A stretch of DNA of 52,440 bases from a virus (IMGVR_UViG_3300032174_000009:1-52440), one strand, 5' to 3'. Counted from the stretch's first letter, positions 3,787 through 30,364 are shown. Notes: generated by a model not told the origin, from the letters alone. Numbers and translations: made by a program.

Positions 3787-4788
3787 TTAACCTGTCTTAA
3801 TCTCCAGCGCTTCAGCCGCATCCCTCAGATAATCCGGCGAAAACTTAGCGTATACCCGCGAAGTGATCCGGCTGTCAGAGTGCCCGAGAAATGCGGCGAT
3901 ACGATCCATTCCGATTCCGGCCTCGGCCATCCAAGATGCGGCTGAATGACGGAATATATGGGCAGTGACCCATGGCAGCCCGCAGCGCCTTCCGGCGGCT
4001 TGTAGACCGGTCTTAATGCTTTTGACTGGTTTCCCATTCCACTCCACCACAAAGTCCGTCAGTGCTCCCATTTTGGCCTCTTGGAGAGCTGCCATCAAGG
4101 TCCGGTTAATCGGGACTACCGCTCGTCGCTTTTGTCCTGACTGACAAGGTAGGTTCAGATCTATTAAACGGGTCTCGAAATTCACTCTGCCCCACGTCAG
4201 GCCGAGCAAGGCACCAATACGTGCTCCTGTTGTCATGGCTGCAATAACGCAAAGTCGTATGTGCGGGGTGGAACACGATGAAAGGAACCGGTTCGCTTGT
4301 TCCCGTGTCAAACGCAAATCCCTCGGTGGCGATATAGCCGGGCGGGATATGTAAGGCGCCTTGGCTATCAGATTCTTTTTCTCTGCCCATCTTAGCGCGC
4401 TCCTGAGTCGTCCAAGTTCGGTCCAGATTGTGCCAGGTTTGCGACCTTCCATTTCCCGTCTAACGCGATAATCGAAGCAAGCTTGTTCGCTGAGCCCGTC
4501 GGCGGCCATATTGCCAAAGAAAGGAAGGACAGAGCGCCCTTCAAAGCCCATAGTCTGAAAAGCAGGTCGCCCTTTAAGCGTCTCACGATATCCATTCCAG
4601 ACAAGCTCCACCGTTATAGTTTTTGGCCGGTTGGCGATTTCGTATTGCACGGCAAAACTTCGTAGCCCTTGCTCGGCAATCTCATGATTTTGGGTCCGAA
4701 GTGAACATCGGCGGGTAGCACCGCGATCTCGCCATGCTGCGTAGTACCAACCTCGGAAGAGGACGACGCGGAATTTAGGAGGTGACAT
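3787..4788 (-). CDS. int: Tyrosine integrase
   Basis: Catalytic residues in TGARIG, HIFRHS, LGHS and VY. Confidence 0.95.
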   Translation of the reverse strand: MSPPKFRVVLFRGWYYAAWRDRGATRRCSLRTQNHEIAEQGLRSFAVQYEIANRPKTITVELVWNGYRETLKGRPAFQTMGFEGRSVLPFFGNMAADGLSEQACFDYRVRREMEGRKPGTIWTELGRLRSALRWAEKKNLIAKAPYISRPAISPPRDLRLTREQANRFLSSCSTPHIRLCVIAAMTTGARIGALLGLTWGRVNFETRLIDLNLPCQSGQKRRAVVPINRTLMAALQEAKMGALTDFVVEWNGKPVKSIKTGLQAAGRRCGLPWVTAHIFRHSAASWMAEAGIGMDRIAAFLGHSDSRITSRVYAKFSPDYLRDAAEALEIKTG

Positions 4789-5641: not shown

Positions 5642-5919
5642 GTTTCTTTCCTGCGCATAATCATCACATCGATGACAACAGAGTCGTCCCGATCATCAAT
5701 TGAAAGATTTCTAAGAACGACGGCGGTCGTCATGCCAACATCACGGCCGATAGAAACGAGAAGACGCTCGAATGACCGCATCATCCCGCCAACAAAAAGC
5801 GGCGAAAGCGCGCCCCCGGGGGTTGGCGTTATCTTAAACGAAAGATAGTGATCGCCGCGCATATCTGCGGCTAGTTCAAAATTGTGTTGAGCATTGCAGC
5901 TTGGACAAGTGATCTTCAT
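5638..5919 (-). CDS. Hypothetical protein with N-terminal CxxC
   Basis: MKITCPSCNA; coupled in the operon. Confidence 0.5.
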   Translation of the reverse strand: MKITCPSCNAQHNFELAADMRGDHYLSFKITPTPGGALSPLFVGGMMRSFERLLVSIGRDVGMTTAVVLRNLSIDDRDDSVVIDVMIMRRKET

Positions 5920-6182
5920 TCCTGCGGTTCCGTAAGGTCTGGCAAAGAGAACCCGTAAATGCTCTTTAAAAGCTCGAGCTCATGCCGATCCACCACAGCG
6001 GCGCCCATCCAACTGATGGCAGAGAGAGCCACTTTCGCGCGCTCCAACCACGGGGCATTATGACCAAGCTCTATCATTGTGCTCGCCATCACCCTAATGA
6101 TTTCTTCCCTGGTCACGTCACAATCTCCAAACAAATCATCGCCAGAAACAGTAATATGCCGCCTAGCAAAATGTTGATCCAA
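5916..6182 (-). CDS. Hypothetical protein
   Basis: Coupled ORF. Confidence 0.45.
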   Translation of the reverse strand: MDQHFARRHITVSGDDLFGDCDVTREEIIRVMASTMIELGHNAPWLERAKVALSAISWMGAAVVDRHELELLKSIYGFSLPDLTEPQE

Positions 6183-6249
6183 AAATCACGCCTGATTAGT
6201 TTTTCTTCATCTTTCCGTATGGATTCCAGCAATTTACGTAGTTCAGGAC

Positions 6250-21620: not shown

Positions 21621-21833
21621 ATGACTATTGCCAAGAAATTGAAGCCATCTTGGGTGGAGAGGTATTCTGCCGACGACAATATCAAGGATAAAATTGGAAG
21701 AGACGCAGGTCATTGCCTGTATCCAGATGAGGATCTTAATGGATACTGGGAAGATGGCACATATTTTGTGTACGATGCAAAGATCAACGATTGGATCCCA
21801 GAAGACGAAATATTTGAGCACGGCTACTACTAA
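21621..21833 (+). CDS. Hypothetical acidic protein
   Basis: 70-aa ORF. Confidence 0.5.
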   Translation: MTIAKKLKPSWVERYSADDNIKDKIGRDAGHCLYPDEDLNGYWEDGTYFVYDAKINDWIPEDEIFEHGYY

Positions 21834-22015
21834 TGTCTGATGACTGTGTAAGGAAAAAGCTTGAGCAATTCCTTAGCAAAGACGAGATTCGGGAATGGCT
21901 TGATCAACCTCATTTGCTGCTTAGCAATCAATCTCCAAGTGATTTTATTCGTGCTGGTCGCGACGATGATGTTTTGCGTCTCATTGACTTGGTATTTGAC
22001 AAAAATGTTTTTTAG
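21833..22015 (+). CDS. Small protein resembling the Xre/MbcA/ParS antitoxin C-terminal domain
   Basis: EWLDQPHLLLSNQSPSDFIRAGRDDDVLRLI. Confidence 0.55.
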   Translation: MSDDCVRKKLEQFLSKDEIREWLDQPHLLLSNQSPSDFIRAGRDDDVLRLIDLVFDKNVF

Positions 22016-22291
22016 AAAATGACAGCGCAGATAAACAGTATTGCCTCGATTAATGATGCGCGTCGCGCCGCCGCGAAGGTTTATGCAGCTTATTTCGCCG
22101 GCGCACCGGTTAATGGTATGCTACAAGATGTTGAACTTAGGTTGCTTGAGGCTCTGATGCGCTTATACAGGAAAAGGTGAAGCGTCGCGGGCCCTATCCG
22201 TGCATTGGCTGACCACTACGAGCCAGACGTTTGCTTCAATTTCTGGCGCTTCAGCATACCGCGCGAGCTAGTACGCGGCATGTTCGAAACG

Positions 22292-22588
22292 TCACTTCAA
22301 CAAAAGTTTCTGGGTACGACGGATAATGTCGTATATTTCAGATTCATATTTGTCTATATCGATGGCATTTGCAAAGAGGAAATCTTCGGGCTCTATGCCT
22401 TCTGACTGGTAGTACAGAGCCATGCACGCTAGCTCGACATACCGTGGTATCCGGTGCTCGCCGGCCTCATATGAGTCATAGGCGTGTTGTGATAGGCCAA
22501 GGGCTTTGGCAGCTCTTTCCTTGCTACGTGTGCCGTAGCCTATTCCGAACATGCGCTCACGCCATGCTTTGAGTGATGCGGGGGTCAC
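22292..22588 (-). CDS. XRE/Cro-type HTH regulator terminating the cassette array
   Basis: MTPASLKAWR...AAKALGLS...YEAG...IPRYVELAC. Confidence 0.8.
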   Translation of the reverse strand: MTPASLKAWRERMFGIGYGTRSKERAAKALGLSQHAYDSYEAGEHRIPRYVELACMALYYQSEGIEPEDFLFANAIDIDKYESEIYDIIRRTQKLLLK

Positions 22589-22719
22589 TTCTTGCCCCTC
22601 TTGGCGATCTTACGGCGCAAATTGTTTTTGCCGGTTCCGAAGCATGACGGGAAGCTATACCAATAGTCGCGGTTGAAAGTCTTGTGGCAAACCAAGCATT
22701 TGGCTTCGTTTGTGGTCAT
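22585..22719 (-). CDS. Array cargo: 44-aa protein with CxxC
   Basis: GGAGA RBS immediately after repeat copy 1. Confidence 0.6.
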   Translation of the reverse strand: MTTNEAKCLVCHKTFNRDYWYSFPSCFGTGKNNLRRKIAKRGKK

Positions 22720-22786
22720 TTTCTTTGTCTCCTTTTTATTCGAGCGGGCGCTCGTGTCTACGGCCCAAAGGCCGCAGAGGCTAGCG

Positions 22787-23095
22787 TCAGTAACGCGCCG
22801 TCGTGTACCAATGGGAATCTGCGCACAGGAATTTATTTGGGTCCCATGAATAGATTCCCATCGTGTCCGATGGTTCGTCGCCACCGAAAGTCGATAGATC
22901 GGTTATGTCGATATAGTCTTCGATAGAGCCATCAAGGCCAGTTAGTGTATTAAGTTCGGCGACACGCTCGTCGAGCCTATTTAGATAATCGCATAGCTGT
23001 TGGAGGCTATCTGCCACTATAACCGCCTTTGTATAGTGCGCTATCTCGGTCTCAAGCTGATCGATACGAGTTTGGTCTTCTTCGATATAGGTCAT
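22787..23095 (-). CDS. Array cargo: acidic 102-aa protein
   Basis: GGAGA RBS; stop codon is the repeat TGA. Confidence 0.75.
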   Translation of the reverse strand: MTYIEEDQTRIDQLETEIAHYTKAVIVADSLQQLCDYLNRLDERVAELNTLTGLDGSIEDYIDITDLSTFGGDEPSDTMGIYSWDPNKFLCADSHWYTTARY

Positions 23096-23159
23096 TTTAG
23101 TCTCTCCTTTGTTTCGAGCTGGCGCTCGTATCTGCCGCCAATGGCGGCAGAGGCTAGCG

Positions 23160-23258
23160 TCACTTTCGCACTAAATTCTTGTAGGTTTGAAATCCACACC
23201 TTGCCAAGAATTCGTAGATTTGTTGCAATTCCTCTTCCGTCAGTTTTTCTCTTTTCAT
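23160..23258 (-). CDS. Array cargo: 32-aa peptide
   Basis: MKREKLTEEELQQIYEFLARCGFQTYKNLVRK; RBS present; stop is the repeat TGA. Confidence 0.6.
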   Translation of the reverse strand: MKREKLTEEELQQIYEFLARCGFQTYKNLVRK

Positions 23259-23322
23259 TTTCGTCTCCTTTGATTTCGAGCAGGGCGCTCGTGTATGCCG
23301 CCATCGGCGGCATAGGCTAGCG

Positions 23323-23793
23323 TCAGTTTCCGAAATAGAAGCATCTCGCATACGCGAGCAATATCTCTTCGGTTGATGTGTAGTCTTTTGAGCCTAAGTC
23401 CTCATCACGCCGAGGCCAAAACTCCGTCCACGGGGTGAACCAATCTTGGACTTCGAGCCAAGCCTTTTCAGGCTCGCTATACTCGTTGAGCGTGCCGCGT
23501 ATGCGTACCGCTGGCCCACCAGTGCAGAGCAATATCTGAAACTCGTCAGGATCTTCGGCCTCGCGACCAGGCTCATGCCAGTCACTACGAACCAGCACAG
23601 ACAACGCGTCCTCATGGATCGCTTGCTCTGCGTCCTCAAGGGCCGTTGCCTCTAGGTCAGTTTGGCCTTCGTCTTTGTCCTCTGCGTTGCGCGCAACTTC
23701 GAGGGCCTCGACCATCTCTTTTATGCTGTTGAATTGAGCTTGGCCTTGCTCTTTGGCATTGGCCATTTTGTCTTCAGTCTGTACGTCGGTCAT
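23323..23793 (-). CDS. Array cargo: highly acidic 156-aa protein
   Basis: RBS; stop is the repeat TGA; LLCTGGPAVRI and QDWFTPW segments. Confidence 0.8.
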   Translation of the reverse strand: MTDVQTEDKMANAKEQGQAQFNSIKEMVEALEVARNAEDKDEGQTDLEATALEDAEQAIHEDALSVLVRSDWHEPGREAEDPDEFQILLCTGGPAVRIRGTLNEYSEPEKAWLEVQDWFTPWTEFWPRRDEDLGSKDYTSTEEILLAYARCFYFGN

Positions 23794-23858
23794 TTTCGTC
23801 TCCCTTTATTCGAGCATTGGCGCTCGTGTCTGCGGTCTGGGGACCGCAGAGGCTAGCG

Positions 23859-24095
23859 TCAGTCGTCGCTTCTACGCTGGTTTAACCGCTCCCAATTGCG
23901 CTTGTCATAATCGGCGGAACAGTTCCACACTGGCATTTTGTTTTCTTGTCGCATCATGTCCGTTGCGGTTCTCAGCGGATCGGTCTTTGCCCAAACAGCG
24001 TTTGGACTTGATGGGTATGAATAGCGGGTGCGCTTGGTTTCGGTATCGCCGGCCACGAATGAGCCATCTTTGCCGTAATGATAAACGATTGCCAT
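23859..24095 (-). CDS. Array cargo: 78-aa protein
   Basis: GGAGA RBS; stop is the repeat TGA. Confidence 0.7.
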   Translation of the reverse strand: MAIVYHYGKDGSFVAGDTETKRTRYSYPSSPNAVWAKTDPLRTATDMMRQENKMPVWNCSADYDKRNWERLNQRRSDD

Positions 24096-24270
24096 TTTCG
24101 TCTCTCCTATTTATGTTCCGGCGGCTCCGTGCTGGTCACGTGTGAGCACTAGCTGATACGTGATAGTTGGCACGGTCTGCCCAGCCGCCGTCTTTCGCTC
24201 GATTGGTTACGGGCTTTGTTTCGAGCTTTGGCGCTCGTGTCTACGGCCCCGGAGGCCGCAGAGGCTAGCG

Positions 24271-24453
24271 TCATAGGTAGCATTTAGAAACCCTAAAGCG
24301 GCATTCGTCACCGTTGCAATTCATGCGCTTGGCAATGCGTTGCAGCTCGCGGTGCGGATAGCCCTTAGAAGTTTCAATAACCCCGTCAGGCACACATGAG
24401 CCTCGCGGATATGAAAATATAGCCCAGACCTTGTCTTTTGCTTTCTTAGTCAT
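24271..24453 (-). CDS. Array cargo: 60-aa protein
   Basis: GGGAGA RBS; stop is the repeat TGA. Confidence 0.65.
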   Translation of the reverse strand: MTKKAKDKVWAIFSYPRGSCVPDGVIETSKGYPHRELQRIAKRMNCNGDECRFRVSKCYL

Positions 24454-24532
24454 TGTAGTCTCTCCCTTGTGGTTAGAAGCTTCGCTATGGGCCGCAACGC
24501 GCGGCCCATGCCGAAACTCAAACTTCGTAGCG

Positions 24533-24658
24533 TCAGTCATGTTTGATAAGTTTCGCCATTAAAAGGCCGTCGATGCGAAGAACTTCCGCAAGAACGTATC
24601 CCTGACGGATGAAATAGGCGAATTCTTTAGAGGCGAGGATCTCAAACCGTATTGTCAT
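24533..24658 (-). CDS. Array cargo: 41-aa peptide
   Basis: MTIRFEILASKEFAYFIRQGYVLAEVLRIDGLLMAKLIKHD; RBS; ends on TGACGCTA. Confidence 0.6.
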   Translation of the reverse strand: MTIRFEILASKEFAYFIRQGYVLAEVLRIDGLLMAKLIKHD

Positions 24659-24868
24659 TTTCGTCTCCTTTTGTTTCGAGCTGCGCGACCAGCCTCAAAT
24701 CCGCGTTGCCATGCCAAAACTATTTCACGGTTGAGCGTGGTTTGGCGCGGTTGGCGTATAGGCTTAGGGCGAAGCGCTTCTTGATATCCTTGGTCATAGG
24801 CGCGATTTAATCTAGCCAGATCAGTTTCCAGGCGCTCGTGTATGCCGCCATAGCGGCATAGGCTAGCG

Positions 24869-25132
24869 TCAGTTTAGCCCAACCCTTTCGCCGATCGTCG
24901 GGTCATCGCCCCAATGATATCGGTCATATTCTTGCCGCCCCGCCCAGAGGCCTCGGTCATACGCTTGGCCCCAAACGCCTGCCTTCTGCTCGTGAGTGGC
25001 GCGGCTTTCGTAGTCTTGCTTGTCGGTCAAACCGTCTGCGAAGCCTTCCTTGTAACCTGGCACATTTGACCAGCGCTCGGCTTCGGTTGGAAAATGTATT
25101 TTCGTCATCGTCTTGATTTTCCGATTTGTCAT
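24869..25132 (-). CDS. Array cargo: 87-aa protein with YxxG...AYDRG motifs
   Basis: GGAGA RBS; stop is the repeat TGA. Confidence 0.7.
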   Translation of the reverse strand: MTNRKIKTMTKIHFPTEAERWSNVPGYKEGFADGLTDKQDYESRATHEQKAGVWGQAYDRGLWAGRQEYDRYHWGDDPTIGERVGLN

Positions 25133-25398
25133 TGTCGTCTCCTTTTTTCTGCACCGTGAGTGCATTGCAGCGGGCTCCGGTAGCTTCTAGGCCGGCCGAG
25201 TTTTCAGTCTGTGCCACCTCGTGTCCATCTGTGCTGCGTTTGCTTCTTTGTATCTGGTGGCTGAGCTTCGTGATCTGGTAGCCGCCCGAAAGCCCGCTGC
25301 AATGCATTCTTCTTTCCGGACCGGGTCTGAGCCGGAGCCTTAGGAGGTGCTTTTGGGGGCCTTTTAGTCTTTCCCATTTCCCTACTGCCTATAATAGT

Positions 25399-25426
25399 AA
25401 TATAAGCAAATTTGCGGGAATGTCAA
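25399..25426 (-). promoter_or_regulatory. Sigma70-like promoter driving the cassette array
   Basis: TTGACA-N16-TATATT in an AT-rich intergenic region. Confidence 0.65.
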
Positions 25427-25555
25427 GCGAATAAGGGTGCCACGCAAGAATAATTTGCTTTTTCGATCACTAATTGTTACAAGAGGCGTGGCGTTGCTTG
25501 AATATTACTGGGCTAATCAGGACACCATAAACCCCGCTATTATTTCTTTGGTTGT

Positions 25556-25888
25556 GTGCGCGATTATCTTATTCAGGCCGATGTAATGCGATTTTGGTTA
25601 GTCGTCATTGTCCTGATTGTGTTTTTCATTCTGTTGCCGATCGGTTGGAGCATCTTTGAGTCTAAGATACAACAGGCGAGACCAGCACCATATGAATGGG
25701 AATTGCGACGCGAAAATGAGATTTGGCCAGGCTTAATTGCATATGTCCCAAGGCGTCACCACATGCGGCGCGCACACAAGTTACCGAGTCTCCCCTTGGT
25801 CTTGCTCAAGTGCTACGACCGCGAGGGCAAGCAGATCACGCCGATCCCCAAGGGATGCACGGATTTGTTTATCGAGCGGGATAAGTGA
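25556..25888 (+). CDS. Membrane-anchored hypothetical protein
   Basis: N-terminal transmembrane segment. Confidence 0.5.
   Translation: MRDYLIQADVMRFWLVVIVLIVFFILLPIGWSIFESKIQQARPAPYEWELRRENEIWPGLIAYVPRRHHMRRAHKLPSLPLVLLKCYDREGKQITPIPKGCTDLFIERDK

Positions 25889-30283: not shown

Positions 30284-30364
<81 letters not shown>

Follow-up and report, generated by a model that had tools for sequence, protein, structure and literature searches.

The minus strand of IMGVR_UViG_3300032174_000009, a viral sequence of 52,440 bases that we analyzed over its whole length (hereafter, the window), carries an operon of small open reading frames (ORFs), several of which end on the TGA that opens a conserved hairpin repeat. 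This repeat belongs to an element family that is real, selected, and previously uncatalogued. We consider it rather likely that it is a lineage-specific, cis-acting intercistronic RNA element of a hyperplastic ORFan operon and that its flanks double as homology patches for gene shuffling. On the best reading of the sequences, the family is specific to a group of soil, temperate-looking phages, in which it would most likely manage a polycistronic ORFan operon and, secondarily, supply homology for swaps of small genes. Within about 55 nucleotides (nt), it unites a covarying RNA structure, a conserved alternative pairing tied to a stop codon, and the joints of complete gene turnover. ORFan-rich hyperplastic regions are where much anti-defense and host-takeover biology of phages is found, and their turnover and message handling are understood in few model phages, through the promoter early stem-loops (PeSLs) of T4-like phages and the RNase III sites of T7. 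The element would offer a compact, plasmid-testable system for translation-linked mRNA switching and short-homology gene shuffling, as well as a new RNA motif family for annotating uncultivated phages.

The composite repeat pattern has six exact matches in the window, all on the minus strand, with the TGA at 24871, 24273, 23861, 23325, 23162, and 22789. Its chance expectation is 0 (0/100 shuffles matched), and each of the six TGAs closes an ORF, of 87/98, 60, 78, 156, 32, and 102 amino acids (aa), respectively. An earlier note, made from the sequence alone, had described six repeat copies placed on ORF-ending TGAs and a seventh ORF ending on TGACGCTA; this arrangement is borne out, and its count of six is right for the exact copies, to which two diverged ones, B (24535) and H (22294), have to be added. 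A covariance model run over the 52.4-kb window finds the six copies only, plus the degenerate copy at 22294 and reverse-strand echoes.

The six exact copies are of a first flank type (type 1: stop codon, lower stem, upper hairpin, and 3′ flank), in which the flanks read TGACGCTAGCC ... CACGAGCGCC-N-GCTCGAA. All on the minus strand, they are copy A (24831 to 24871), whose partner motif is displaced to 24681-24675; copy C (24220 to 24273; core 24273-24230, partner motif 24226-24220); copy D (23809 to 23861), with partner motif and ribosome-binding site (RBS) adjacent; and copies E (23275 to 23325), F (23113 to 23162), and G (22739 to 22789). The RBS regions after the repeats are A rich and carry AGGAGA. 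The earlier note had an RBS and ATG directly following most copies, and this holds for four of the six (D, E, F, and G); the distance from 3′ flank to RBS is ~150 nt in copy A and ~120 nt in copy C. Copy B (24476 to 24535, minus strand) consists of TGACGCTA followed by a two-tier hairpin resembling a second flank type, type 2 (GTTTCGG ... GCGAAGC), and this hairpin is homologous to the 5′-leader hairpin of two related viral contigs, L010 and L149. Copy H (22177 to 22294, minus strand; 22.9 bits with the covariance model) is a long form of type 2, made up of TGACGTTTCGA, a hairpin, CTGAAGCGCC, AGAAAT, and, ~60 nt downstream, CCCGCGACGCTTCAC; the same architecture recurs in contigs L008, L157, and L176 to L178.

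Read from 5′ to 3′, the element begins with the UGA stop. Next come X and X′, the 5′ and 3′ strands of the lower stem, with a variable GC-rich upper hairpin between them. A loop of 4 to 6 nt, X″ (the alternative partner of X′), an A-rich spacer, the Shine-Dalgarno sequence (SD), and the AUG follow. The base at place i from the T of the TGA pairs with the base i−1 places from the 3′ end of the core; this register is constant, and each copy is therefore one symmetric helix in three parts. The lower stem starts directly after the TGA and comprises levels 4 to 7 and 9 in type 1 and levels 4 to 10 in type 2, the internal loop is symmetric (2x2 to 4x4), and the upper stem has from 8 to >30 pairs. 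Several loops are of the UNCG type.

The two-tier hairpin is under structural selection. Among nine sequences, six of nine upper-stem pairs are compensatory. Across 15 type-1 copies from eight contigs, 99.5% of 210 stem cells are paired and 8 of 14 pairs have changed on both sides, values that 0/500 shuffles reach, while slid registers pair at 26 to 49%. The larger alignment that the earlier note had named as a check on its claim of selected structure gave the same answer: over 38 distinct copies, 441/456 stem cells are paired, versus 28 to 53% when slid, and the inner-stem variants it quoted are present and covary. At one orthologous site (copy C of the window versus copy 997 of the related contig L151), three pairs of the upper stem have changed, each with compensation, and among 21 flank positions the only changes are at one compensated pair, a C>U paired with a G>A in the lower stem of the L151 copy. 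A second L151 copy, at 726, keeps its lower stem by way of U.G and A-U pairs. The non-Watson-Crick stem cells of the 38 copies comprise 28 G.U and 4 A.C, and because G.U so outnumbers A.C, the two-tier fold is selected on the sense strand. This points to mRNA, and with less probability to sense-strand single-stranded DNA (ssDNA), as the molecule whose fold is selected.

A further pairing involves the flanks. Type 2, with flanks TGAC-G/T-T/C-TTCGG, a hairpin, and GCGAAGCGCC, occurs in about a dozen related viral contigs, in arrays of two to four copies within early small-gene operons, and in the window as copies B and H. Between the types the lower-stem register is unchanged, with level 9 going from GC in type 1 (16 copies) to CG in type 2 (22 copies) and level 8 from an A/G mismatch to U-A. 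The X′:X″ helix (CGAGC or GAAGC with GCTCG or GCTTC, 4 to 6 nt downstream) has five of five pairs in 17/19 short-form copies and four of five in the other 2/19. Its pairs 1 and 2 covary with flank type, and X′ makes a mean of 4.89 pairs with its own partner versus 3.46 with the partner of the other type. In the long forms, X″ lies 44 to 66 nt downstream, beyond a further conserved hairpin. The flank types thus differ by concerted changes in X, X′, and X″, and X:X′ and X′:X″ are both conserved, so that the two mutually exclusive flank pairings noted earlier do exist. X is identical in 15/16 type-1 copies and X′ in 13/16; that X′ bases each have two alternative partners would explain why the flanks are nearly invariant while the upper stem drifts.

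An ORF with an SD-preceded start is closed by 18 of 24 copies. In a search that did not require the TGA, a TGA stood just upstream in 41 of 42 matches, the sole exception being an antisense artifact. The TGA is a real stop codon in most copies.

We compared four related operons with that of the window (L010/G003, L146, L149/L156, and L151). By blastn (67 to 89% identity), window and relatives have in common the promoter, a leader hairpin of the copy B type, the repeats, a second noncoding element (E2, described below), the N-terminal two-thirds of the last gene, orf9, and the downstream DNA. The same comparison gave no match to the ORF DNA of orf1 to orf8, and in a blastp comparison among 20 predicted ORFs of at least 20 aa, orf9 alone was shared. 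Homology begins at the TGA and stops just before the ATG. Gene number also varies, from 8 or 9 small genes in the window to 1 to 4 visible in the relatives, and one tiny ORF is common to L156 and L008 in different contexts. The modular gene content that the earlier note suspected is borne out, in that relatives carry wholly different genes between conserved repeats and homology breaks at ORF boundaries. Some joints are irregular and lie inside elements: copy A has a probable paralogue relic of ~150 nt between X′ and X″, a copy in L156 lacks the hairpin, and a copy in L146 has a truncated X″. Such a pattern is what one would expect from recombination at short conserved patches with occasional illegitimate events, and it looks unlike the product of a fixed-point, site-specific system.

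The elements sit in small-gene operons only. The 4-kb region matched nothing among GenBank phages by blastn, and the 71-nt repeat gave one chance match there (E = 7). A search of 185,579 representative genomes returned four loci, all of them chance-level flank matches of 17 to 18 bits, and it pointed to no prophage host. A loose pattern (3′ flank plus partner motif) proved unspecific in viral contigs; among the matches listed, 78 loci were checked with the model, and only L097 holds a real copy. In Rfam, the whole window gave one tRNA only at the gathering threshold; at E up to 10, the region 22300 to 25600 gave four chance-level matches, none on the repeat, and the relatives gave no match. 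A self-cleaving ribozyme is thus not supported for the repeat: none of the Rfam families, among them all the ribozyme classes of that database, matches it even at this permissive threshold. We did not find the element described in the open-access literature.

We propose that the element acts on the polycistronic mRNA, where it would delimit cistrons, be it as a processing site or 3′-stabilizing hairpin like the RNase III sites of T7 or as a conformational toggle. On its 3′ side, a ribosome footprint extends some 12 nt beyond the A-site codon. With the UGA in its A site, a ribosome would cover these ~12 nt, unwinding X and sparing the upper hairpin, and X′ would then be free to pair with X″. 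The invariant flanks, 20 to 50 nt between unrelated ORFs, would act as homology patches, as a consequence of the element rather than its purpose. General recombination, for which the phage encodes an Erf protein and an exonuclease, could swap, delete, or add ORFans at these flanks, which would explain why relatives keep the scaffold and not the genes.

A number of observations weigh against this interpretation. Six of the 24 copies are not on the stop codon of a recognizable ORF, and in L010 a gene ends 21 nt upstream of its copy. The type-2-like leader hairpins of L010 and L149 lack the TGA; even where no ribosome terminates, the hairpin therefore still works or at least persists. In 17 folded copies, the unpaired probabilities of the SD and AUG did not shift consistently when an 18-nt ribosome block was imposed, so that a translational-coupling switch of the kind that hides the RBS is not supported; in these models, a toggle, if there is any, would have an output other than simple RBS occlusion. 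The L151 copy at 726 has a weakened X′:X″, and the covariation between type 1 and type 2 may represent one or a few ancestral events. Classical RNase III substrates are roughly 20 bp, and the helix of the element, at 14 to 17 bp, is shorter. The copies are kin, so that the shuffle tests overstate independence, and the patterns used to find them demanded conserved flanks, which biases the set toward well-formed elements. Homologous recombination at the repeats is something we infer from where homology breaks. Two joints within contigs, with sides of 22 to 24 nt, reproduce an L156-like arrangement, and these come from co-occurring relatives and not from excision.

The most durable of the rival explanations, a credible one although we lean against it as a full account, holds that the repeats are only processing or stabilizing sites of the RNase III type (or RNase E plus a hairpin): the hairpin would be cut, or would block 3′ exonucleases, giving each cistron its own stable mRNA, and X′:X″ would be incidental. 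In the early region of T7, RNase III sites are internal-loop hairpins of partly conserved sequence that stand between cistrons and in the leader and leave a 3′ hairpin on the upstream message. Our element, too, is an irregular hairpin, with two tiers, a conserved internal loop, and a variable upper stem; it separates cistrons of one predicted transcript, occurs in the leader of relatives, and also follows the last gene, and the stretch behind it is A rich and single stranded. Folding on the sense strand and the unchanged modeled SD accessibility fit this explanation as well. The element differs from the T7 sites in its short helix of just 14 to 17 bp, in the stop codon fixed at the stem base, and in the conserved alternative pairing; the fixed stop (41/42 motif matches) and the X″/X′ covariation are left unexplained. 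Processing or stabilization of this type would nonetheless be the most likely specific output nested within the intercistronic-element explanation that we prefer.

Somewhat more doubtful is the bolder idea that the element is a ribosome-toggled, three-strand RNA switch that doubles as portable punctuation for the exchange of ORFan, possibly anti-defense, genes. Without a ribosome, X:X′ would close the long two-tier hairpin; termination on the UGA at the foot of the stem would melt X, leave the upper hairpin intact, and shift X′ onto X″, just ahead of the next RBS. What becomes of every downstream cistron, whether reinitiation, cleavage, or decay, would then depend on the translation of its upstream neighbor. 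Because the whole device sits between a stop and a start codon, any ORF could be dropped in. If this were true, the toggle itself would be the punctuation for ORFan exchange by short-homology recombination.

Protein-binding sites in double-stranded DNA (dsDNA) are improbable. Here the CGAGC-N4-6-GCTCG palindrome, or the whole inverted repeat, would be an operator or roadblock for a dimeric protein such as the helix-turn-helix (HTH)-like product of orf9. The features are indeed inverted repeats at the DNA level, the flank sequence is invariant, and the HTH-like gene encodes the sole conserved operon protein. Against this, half-site spacing varies over 4 to 6 nt and the upper loop and stem over 8 to >30 bp, which is not what protein operators look like; mismatches take the form of G.U, and on one strand only; and the stem sequence is free to change while pairing is kept.

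Slightly less probable again is a nonautonomous mini-element like a miniature inverted-repeat transposable element (MITE) or a repetitive extragenic palindrome (REP), inserting at or creating stop codons, so that the array would be a record of insertions and not of function. Near-identical copies between unrelated genes would fit, as would copy A, which has the 7-nt direct repeat AAACTGA on either side and an ORF-like relic behind it. Yet apart from the hairpin itself the copies have no terminal inverted repeats, copy A is the only one with a flanking duplication, deletion of copy A restores no fused frame, and the 185,579 representative genomes hold no copies apart from the four chance-level flank matches. 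An identity as REP or MITE was rejected, the copies being sense only, intergenic, confined to small-gene operons, and not dispersed in representative genomes.

Least probable of all, and very unlikely, is an integron-like, site-specific cassette system in which the hairpin is a recombinase site folded in ssDNA and the ORFs are mobile cassettes, a recombination site being one of the roles that the earlier note had considered. In integron arrays, the ORFs share one orientation, behind each stands an imperfect palindrome whose ends are conserved and whose center varies, and gene content differs; attC sites recombine as the bottom strand and have the core-site consensus RYYYAAC/GTTRRRY. The window shares the same-orientation ORFs, the conserved flanks around a variable, paired center, and a gene content that is wholly different between the repeats of relatives, and it has an integrase, Erf, and an exonuclease. 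Neither membership nor mechanism survives, however: core sites of the RYYYAAC/GTTRRRY kind are missing from the flanks, the symmetric internal loop comes without extrahelical bases, and there is no IntI or attI, the only integrase (3790 to 4788) being 18 kb away and generic (phrog_1; TIGR02249 29 bits versus a cutoff of 265). The 28:4 ratio of G.U to A.C favors folding of the coding (sense) strand, the repeat unit provides the genes with an RBS of their own, ordinary early operons elsewhere are divided by the same elements, irregular joints lie inside elements (copy A, the L156 copy that lacks the hairpin, and the L146 copy with its truncation), and, as a weak point drawn from contigs only, no excised form was seen.

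The closest known relatives in kind are the PeSLs of T4-type phages, which published accounts (PMC2839356, PMC4122927) describe as repeated intergenic motifs running from the upstream stop codon through a stem-loop to the next SD and start. They are concentrated around ORFans in hyperplastic regions, and exchange between copies explains insertions, deletions, and gene replacement there (PMC2839356, PMC4122927). Stop-to-start composite motifs beside ORFans with a role in gene shuffling are common to both. PeSLs as described carry a sigma-70 promoter and a terminator stem-loop (PMC2839356), whereas the repeats here have neither and lie in a single operon; the absence of promoter- or terminator-like sites from the repeats excludes identity with PeSLs. 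In comparison with what is described of PeSLs, our element has a stop-anchored two-tier stem, an alternative 3′ pairing, and invariant flanks, with stems followed by CACGAGCGCC, and its phage is temperate looking and not T4-like. The start-associated sequences (SAS) and extended SAS (ESAS) of Cluster K mycobacteriophages are RBS-linked repeats upstream of some nonstructural genes, conserved across related phages and of unknown function, and imperfect inverted repeats, their spacer variable, precede about half of them, according to the relevant sections of their description (PMC3203893). The 13-bp SAS consensus given there is absent from the RBS regions here, ESAS are tied to start sites and our element to the preceding stop codon, and those sections describe no alternative pairing for ESAS, unlike the element here (PMC3203893).

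Copy A deserves separate mention. Between its 3′ flank and the displaced GCTCGAA and RBS lies an ORF-like stretch of 58 codons (24658 to 24830, minus strand) without a start codon or SD. It resembles orf1 weakly (30% over 40 aa, E = 0.004) and repeats the orf1 motif pair (A/G)(Y/W)xxG(F/Y/L)xxG; no relatives of the stretch were found, and judging from these resemblances it is probably the relic of an orf1 paralogue. The 7-nt direct repeat AAACTGA brackets the 5′ module of the copy. A hop or in-frame fusion across copy A was considered and rejected, as deleting the element or landing on the repeated AAC misses the downstream frame.

After copy C, and ahead of the orf4 RBS, lies E2, the second conserved noncoding element (24100 to 24216, minus strand), a long irregular hairpin of ~115 nt with ~24 pairs in four tiers (fold z = −3.7). 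It is 82 to 89% identical in L010, L149/L156, and L151, where it is located in or near the 5′ leader. Its consensus fold shows one compensatory pair and several wobble changes, and it has no Rfam match.

In the long forms, the module after the core consists of AGAAATGGAGC, a variable hairpin, and AATGCGCGGAT ... CCCGCGACGCTTCAC (window 22177-22245, minus strand; L008 4900-5520; L176, L177, and L178), and some of these modules contain an SD-like GGAG(G) and a mini-ORF of 5 to 12 codons. The long-form tail of copy H adjoins the end of a convergent 53-aa ORF (22019 to 22180, plus strand), and the element thus also marks a boundary between convergent transcription units. In L178 (637 to 951, plus strand) and L157 (~5900 to 6190, plus strand), the gene immediately ahead of a type-2 element codes for a glycine-rich protein built of GWHGGGG repeats.

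The operon would be read from a sigma-70-like promoter, TTGACA-16-TATATT (25399 to 25426, minus strand), which matches the consensus at 11 of 12 positions and is 81% conserved in L149. In a consensus scan of the minus strand from 21800 to 25700, it (25426-25399) is the only strong promoter, and no promoter-like or terminator-like site (hairpin plus T run) was found inside the array. The single promoter of the earlier note therefore stands, but the ORFs behind it number ten (orf0 to orf9, counted from the promoter, in one minus-strand operon) and not eight. Within the promoter spacer lies a perfect 10-bp palindrome, GCAAATTTGC (25406-25415, minus strand), which, judging from its position, may be an operator for the HTH-like last gene, orf9. 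Near-palindromes stand at the equivalent position in the promoter spacers of L010 and L149. In acr operons, a strong promoter with an inverted repeat precedes variable tiny ORFans and a terminal aca gene for an HTH repressor. We infer, from analogy of layout only, a resemblance between this operon (promoter with spacer palindrome, variable tiny ORFans, and conserved HTH-like end gene) and anti-defense loci of the acr-aca type; the likeness concerns the layout and not the repeat, the HTH matches of orf9 are weak, and no acr or aca homology was shown with Pfam, PHROG, or PDB.

The first ORF, orf0 (25204 to 25377, minus strand, as are all ten; 57 aa), is lysine/proline rich; the coding status of its 3′ part is doubtful, just the first ~55 nt being conserved in L149, and L010 lacks the ORF. 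It is followed by orf1 (24869 to 25132; 87 aa from the SD-preceded ATG), which stops on the TGA of copy A and has one distant homologue only, with no longer, fused form within the length range searched. The next ORFs are orf2 (24533 to 24658; 41 aa), which ends on the TGACGCTA at 24535; orf3 (24271 to 24453; 60 aa), which stops on the TGA of copy C; orf4 (23859 to 24095; 78 aa), on that of copy D; and orf5 (23323 to 23793; 156 aa), on that of copy E. A homologue of orf5, 49% identical, occurs in an unrelated high-GC viral contig without any repeat. The TGAs of copies F and G end orf6 (23160 to 23258; 32 aa) and orf7 (22787 to 23095; 102 aa), respectively, and no relatives of orf7 were found in viral contigs. 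The cysteine-rich orf8 (22585 to 22719; 44 aa) has a stop overlapping the GTG start of orf9 (GTGA) and a weak zf-BED match below the cutoff. No Pfam or PHROG family was found for orf1 to orf8.

The last gene, orf9 (22292 to 22588; 98 aa), is weakly HTH-like, with profile matches to HTH_31 (E = 2.6e-4, below the cutoff), phrog_6962, and phrog_6499. It is 76 to 81% identical over 58 aa in L156 and L010 and encodes the sole operon protein conserved in the relatives; a PDB sequence search gave nothing, and tblastn against GenBank phages gave one weak match. In a locus search based on orf9, six loci match its C-terminal 28 residues (69 to 96) only, and none has the repeat; orf9 may therefore be a two-module protein. 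These residues match at 68 to 71% proteins in L164 (1628 to 1711) and L165 to L169, and one of the six loci shares a record with L010, at a second position.

The window itself is a complete IMG/VR virus record with a CheckV completeness estimate of 55%. Its genes suggest a temperate tailed phage: they code for a tyrosine integrase of generic type and a CI-like repressor, for an Erf-like annealing protein together with an exonuclease, and for a helicase, a primase, and a methyltransferase. Among large terminases, those of Brevundimonas phages come closest to its own (53% identity); an alphaproteobacterial host is no more than a guess. A tRNA gene (30284 to 30357, plus strand; Rfam RF00005, 61.6 bits) lies downstream of the gene for the terminase.

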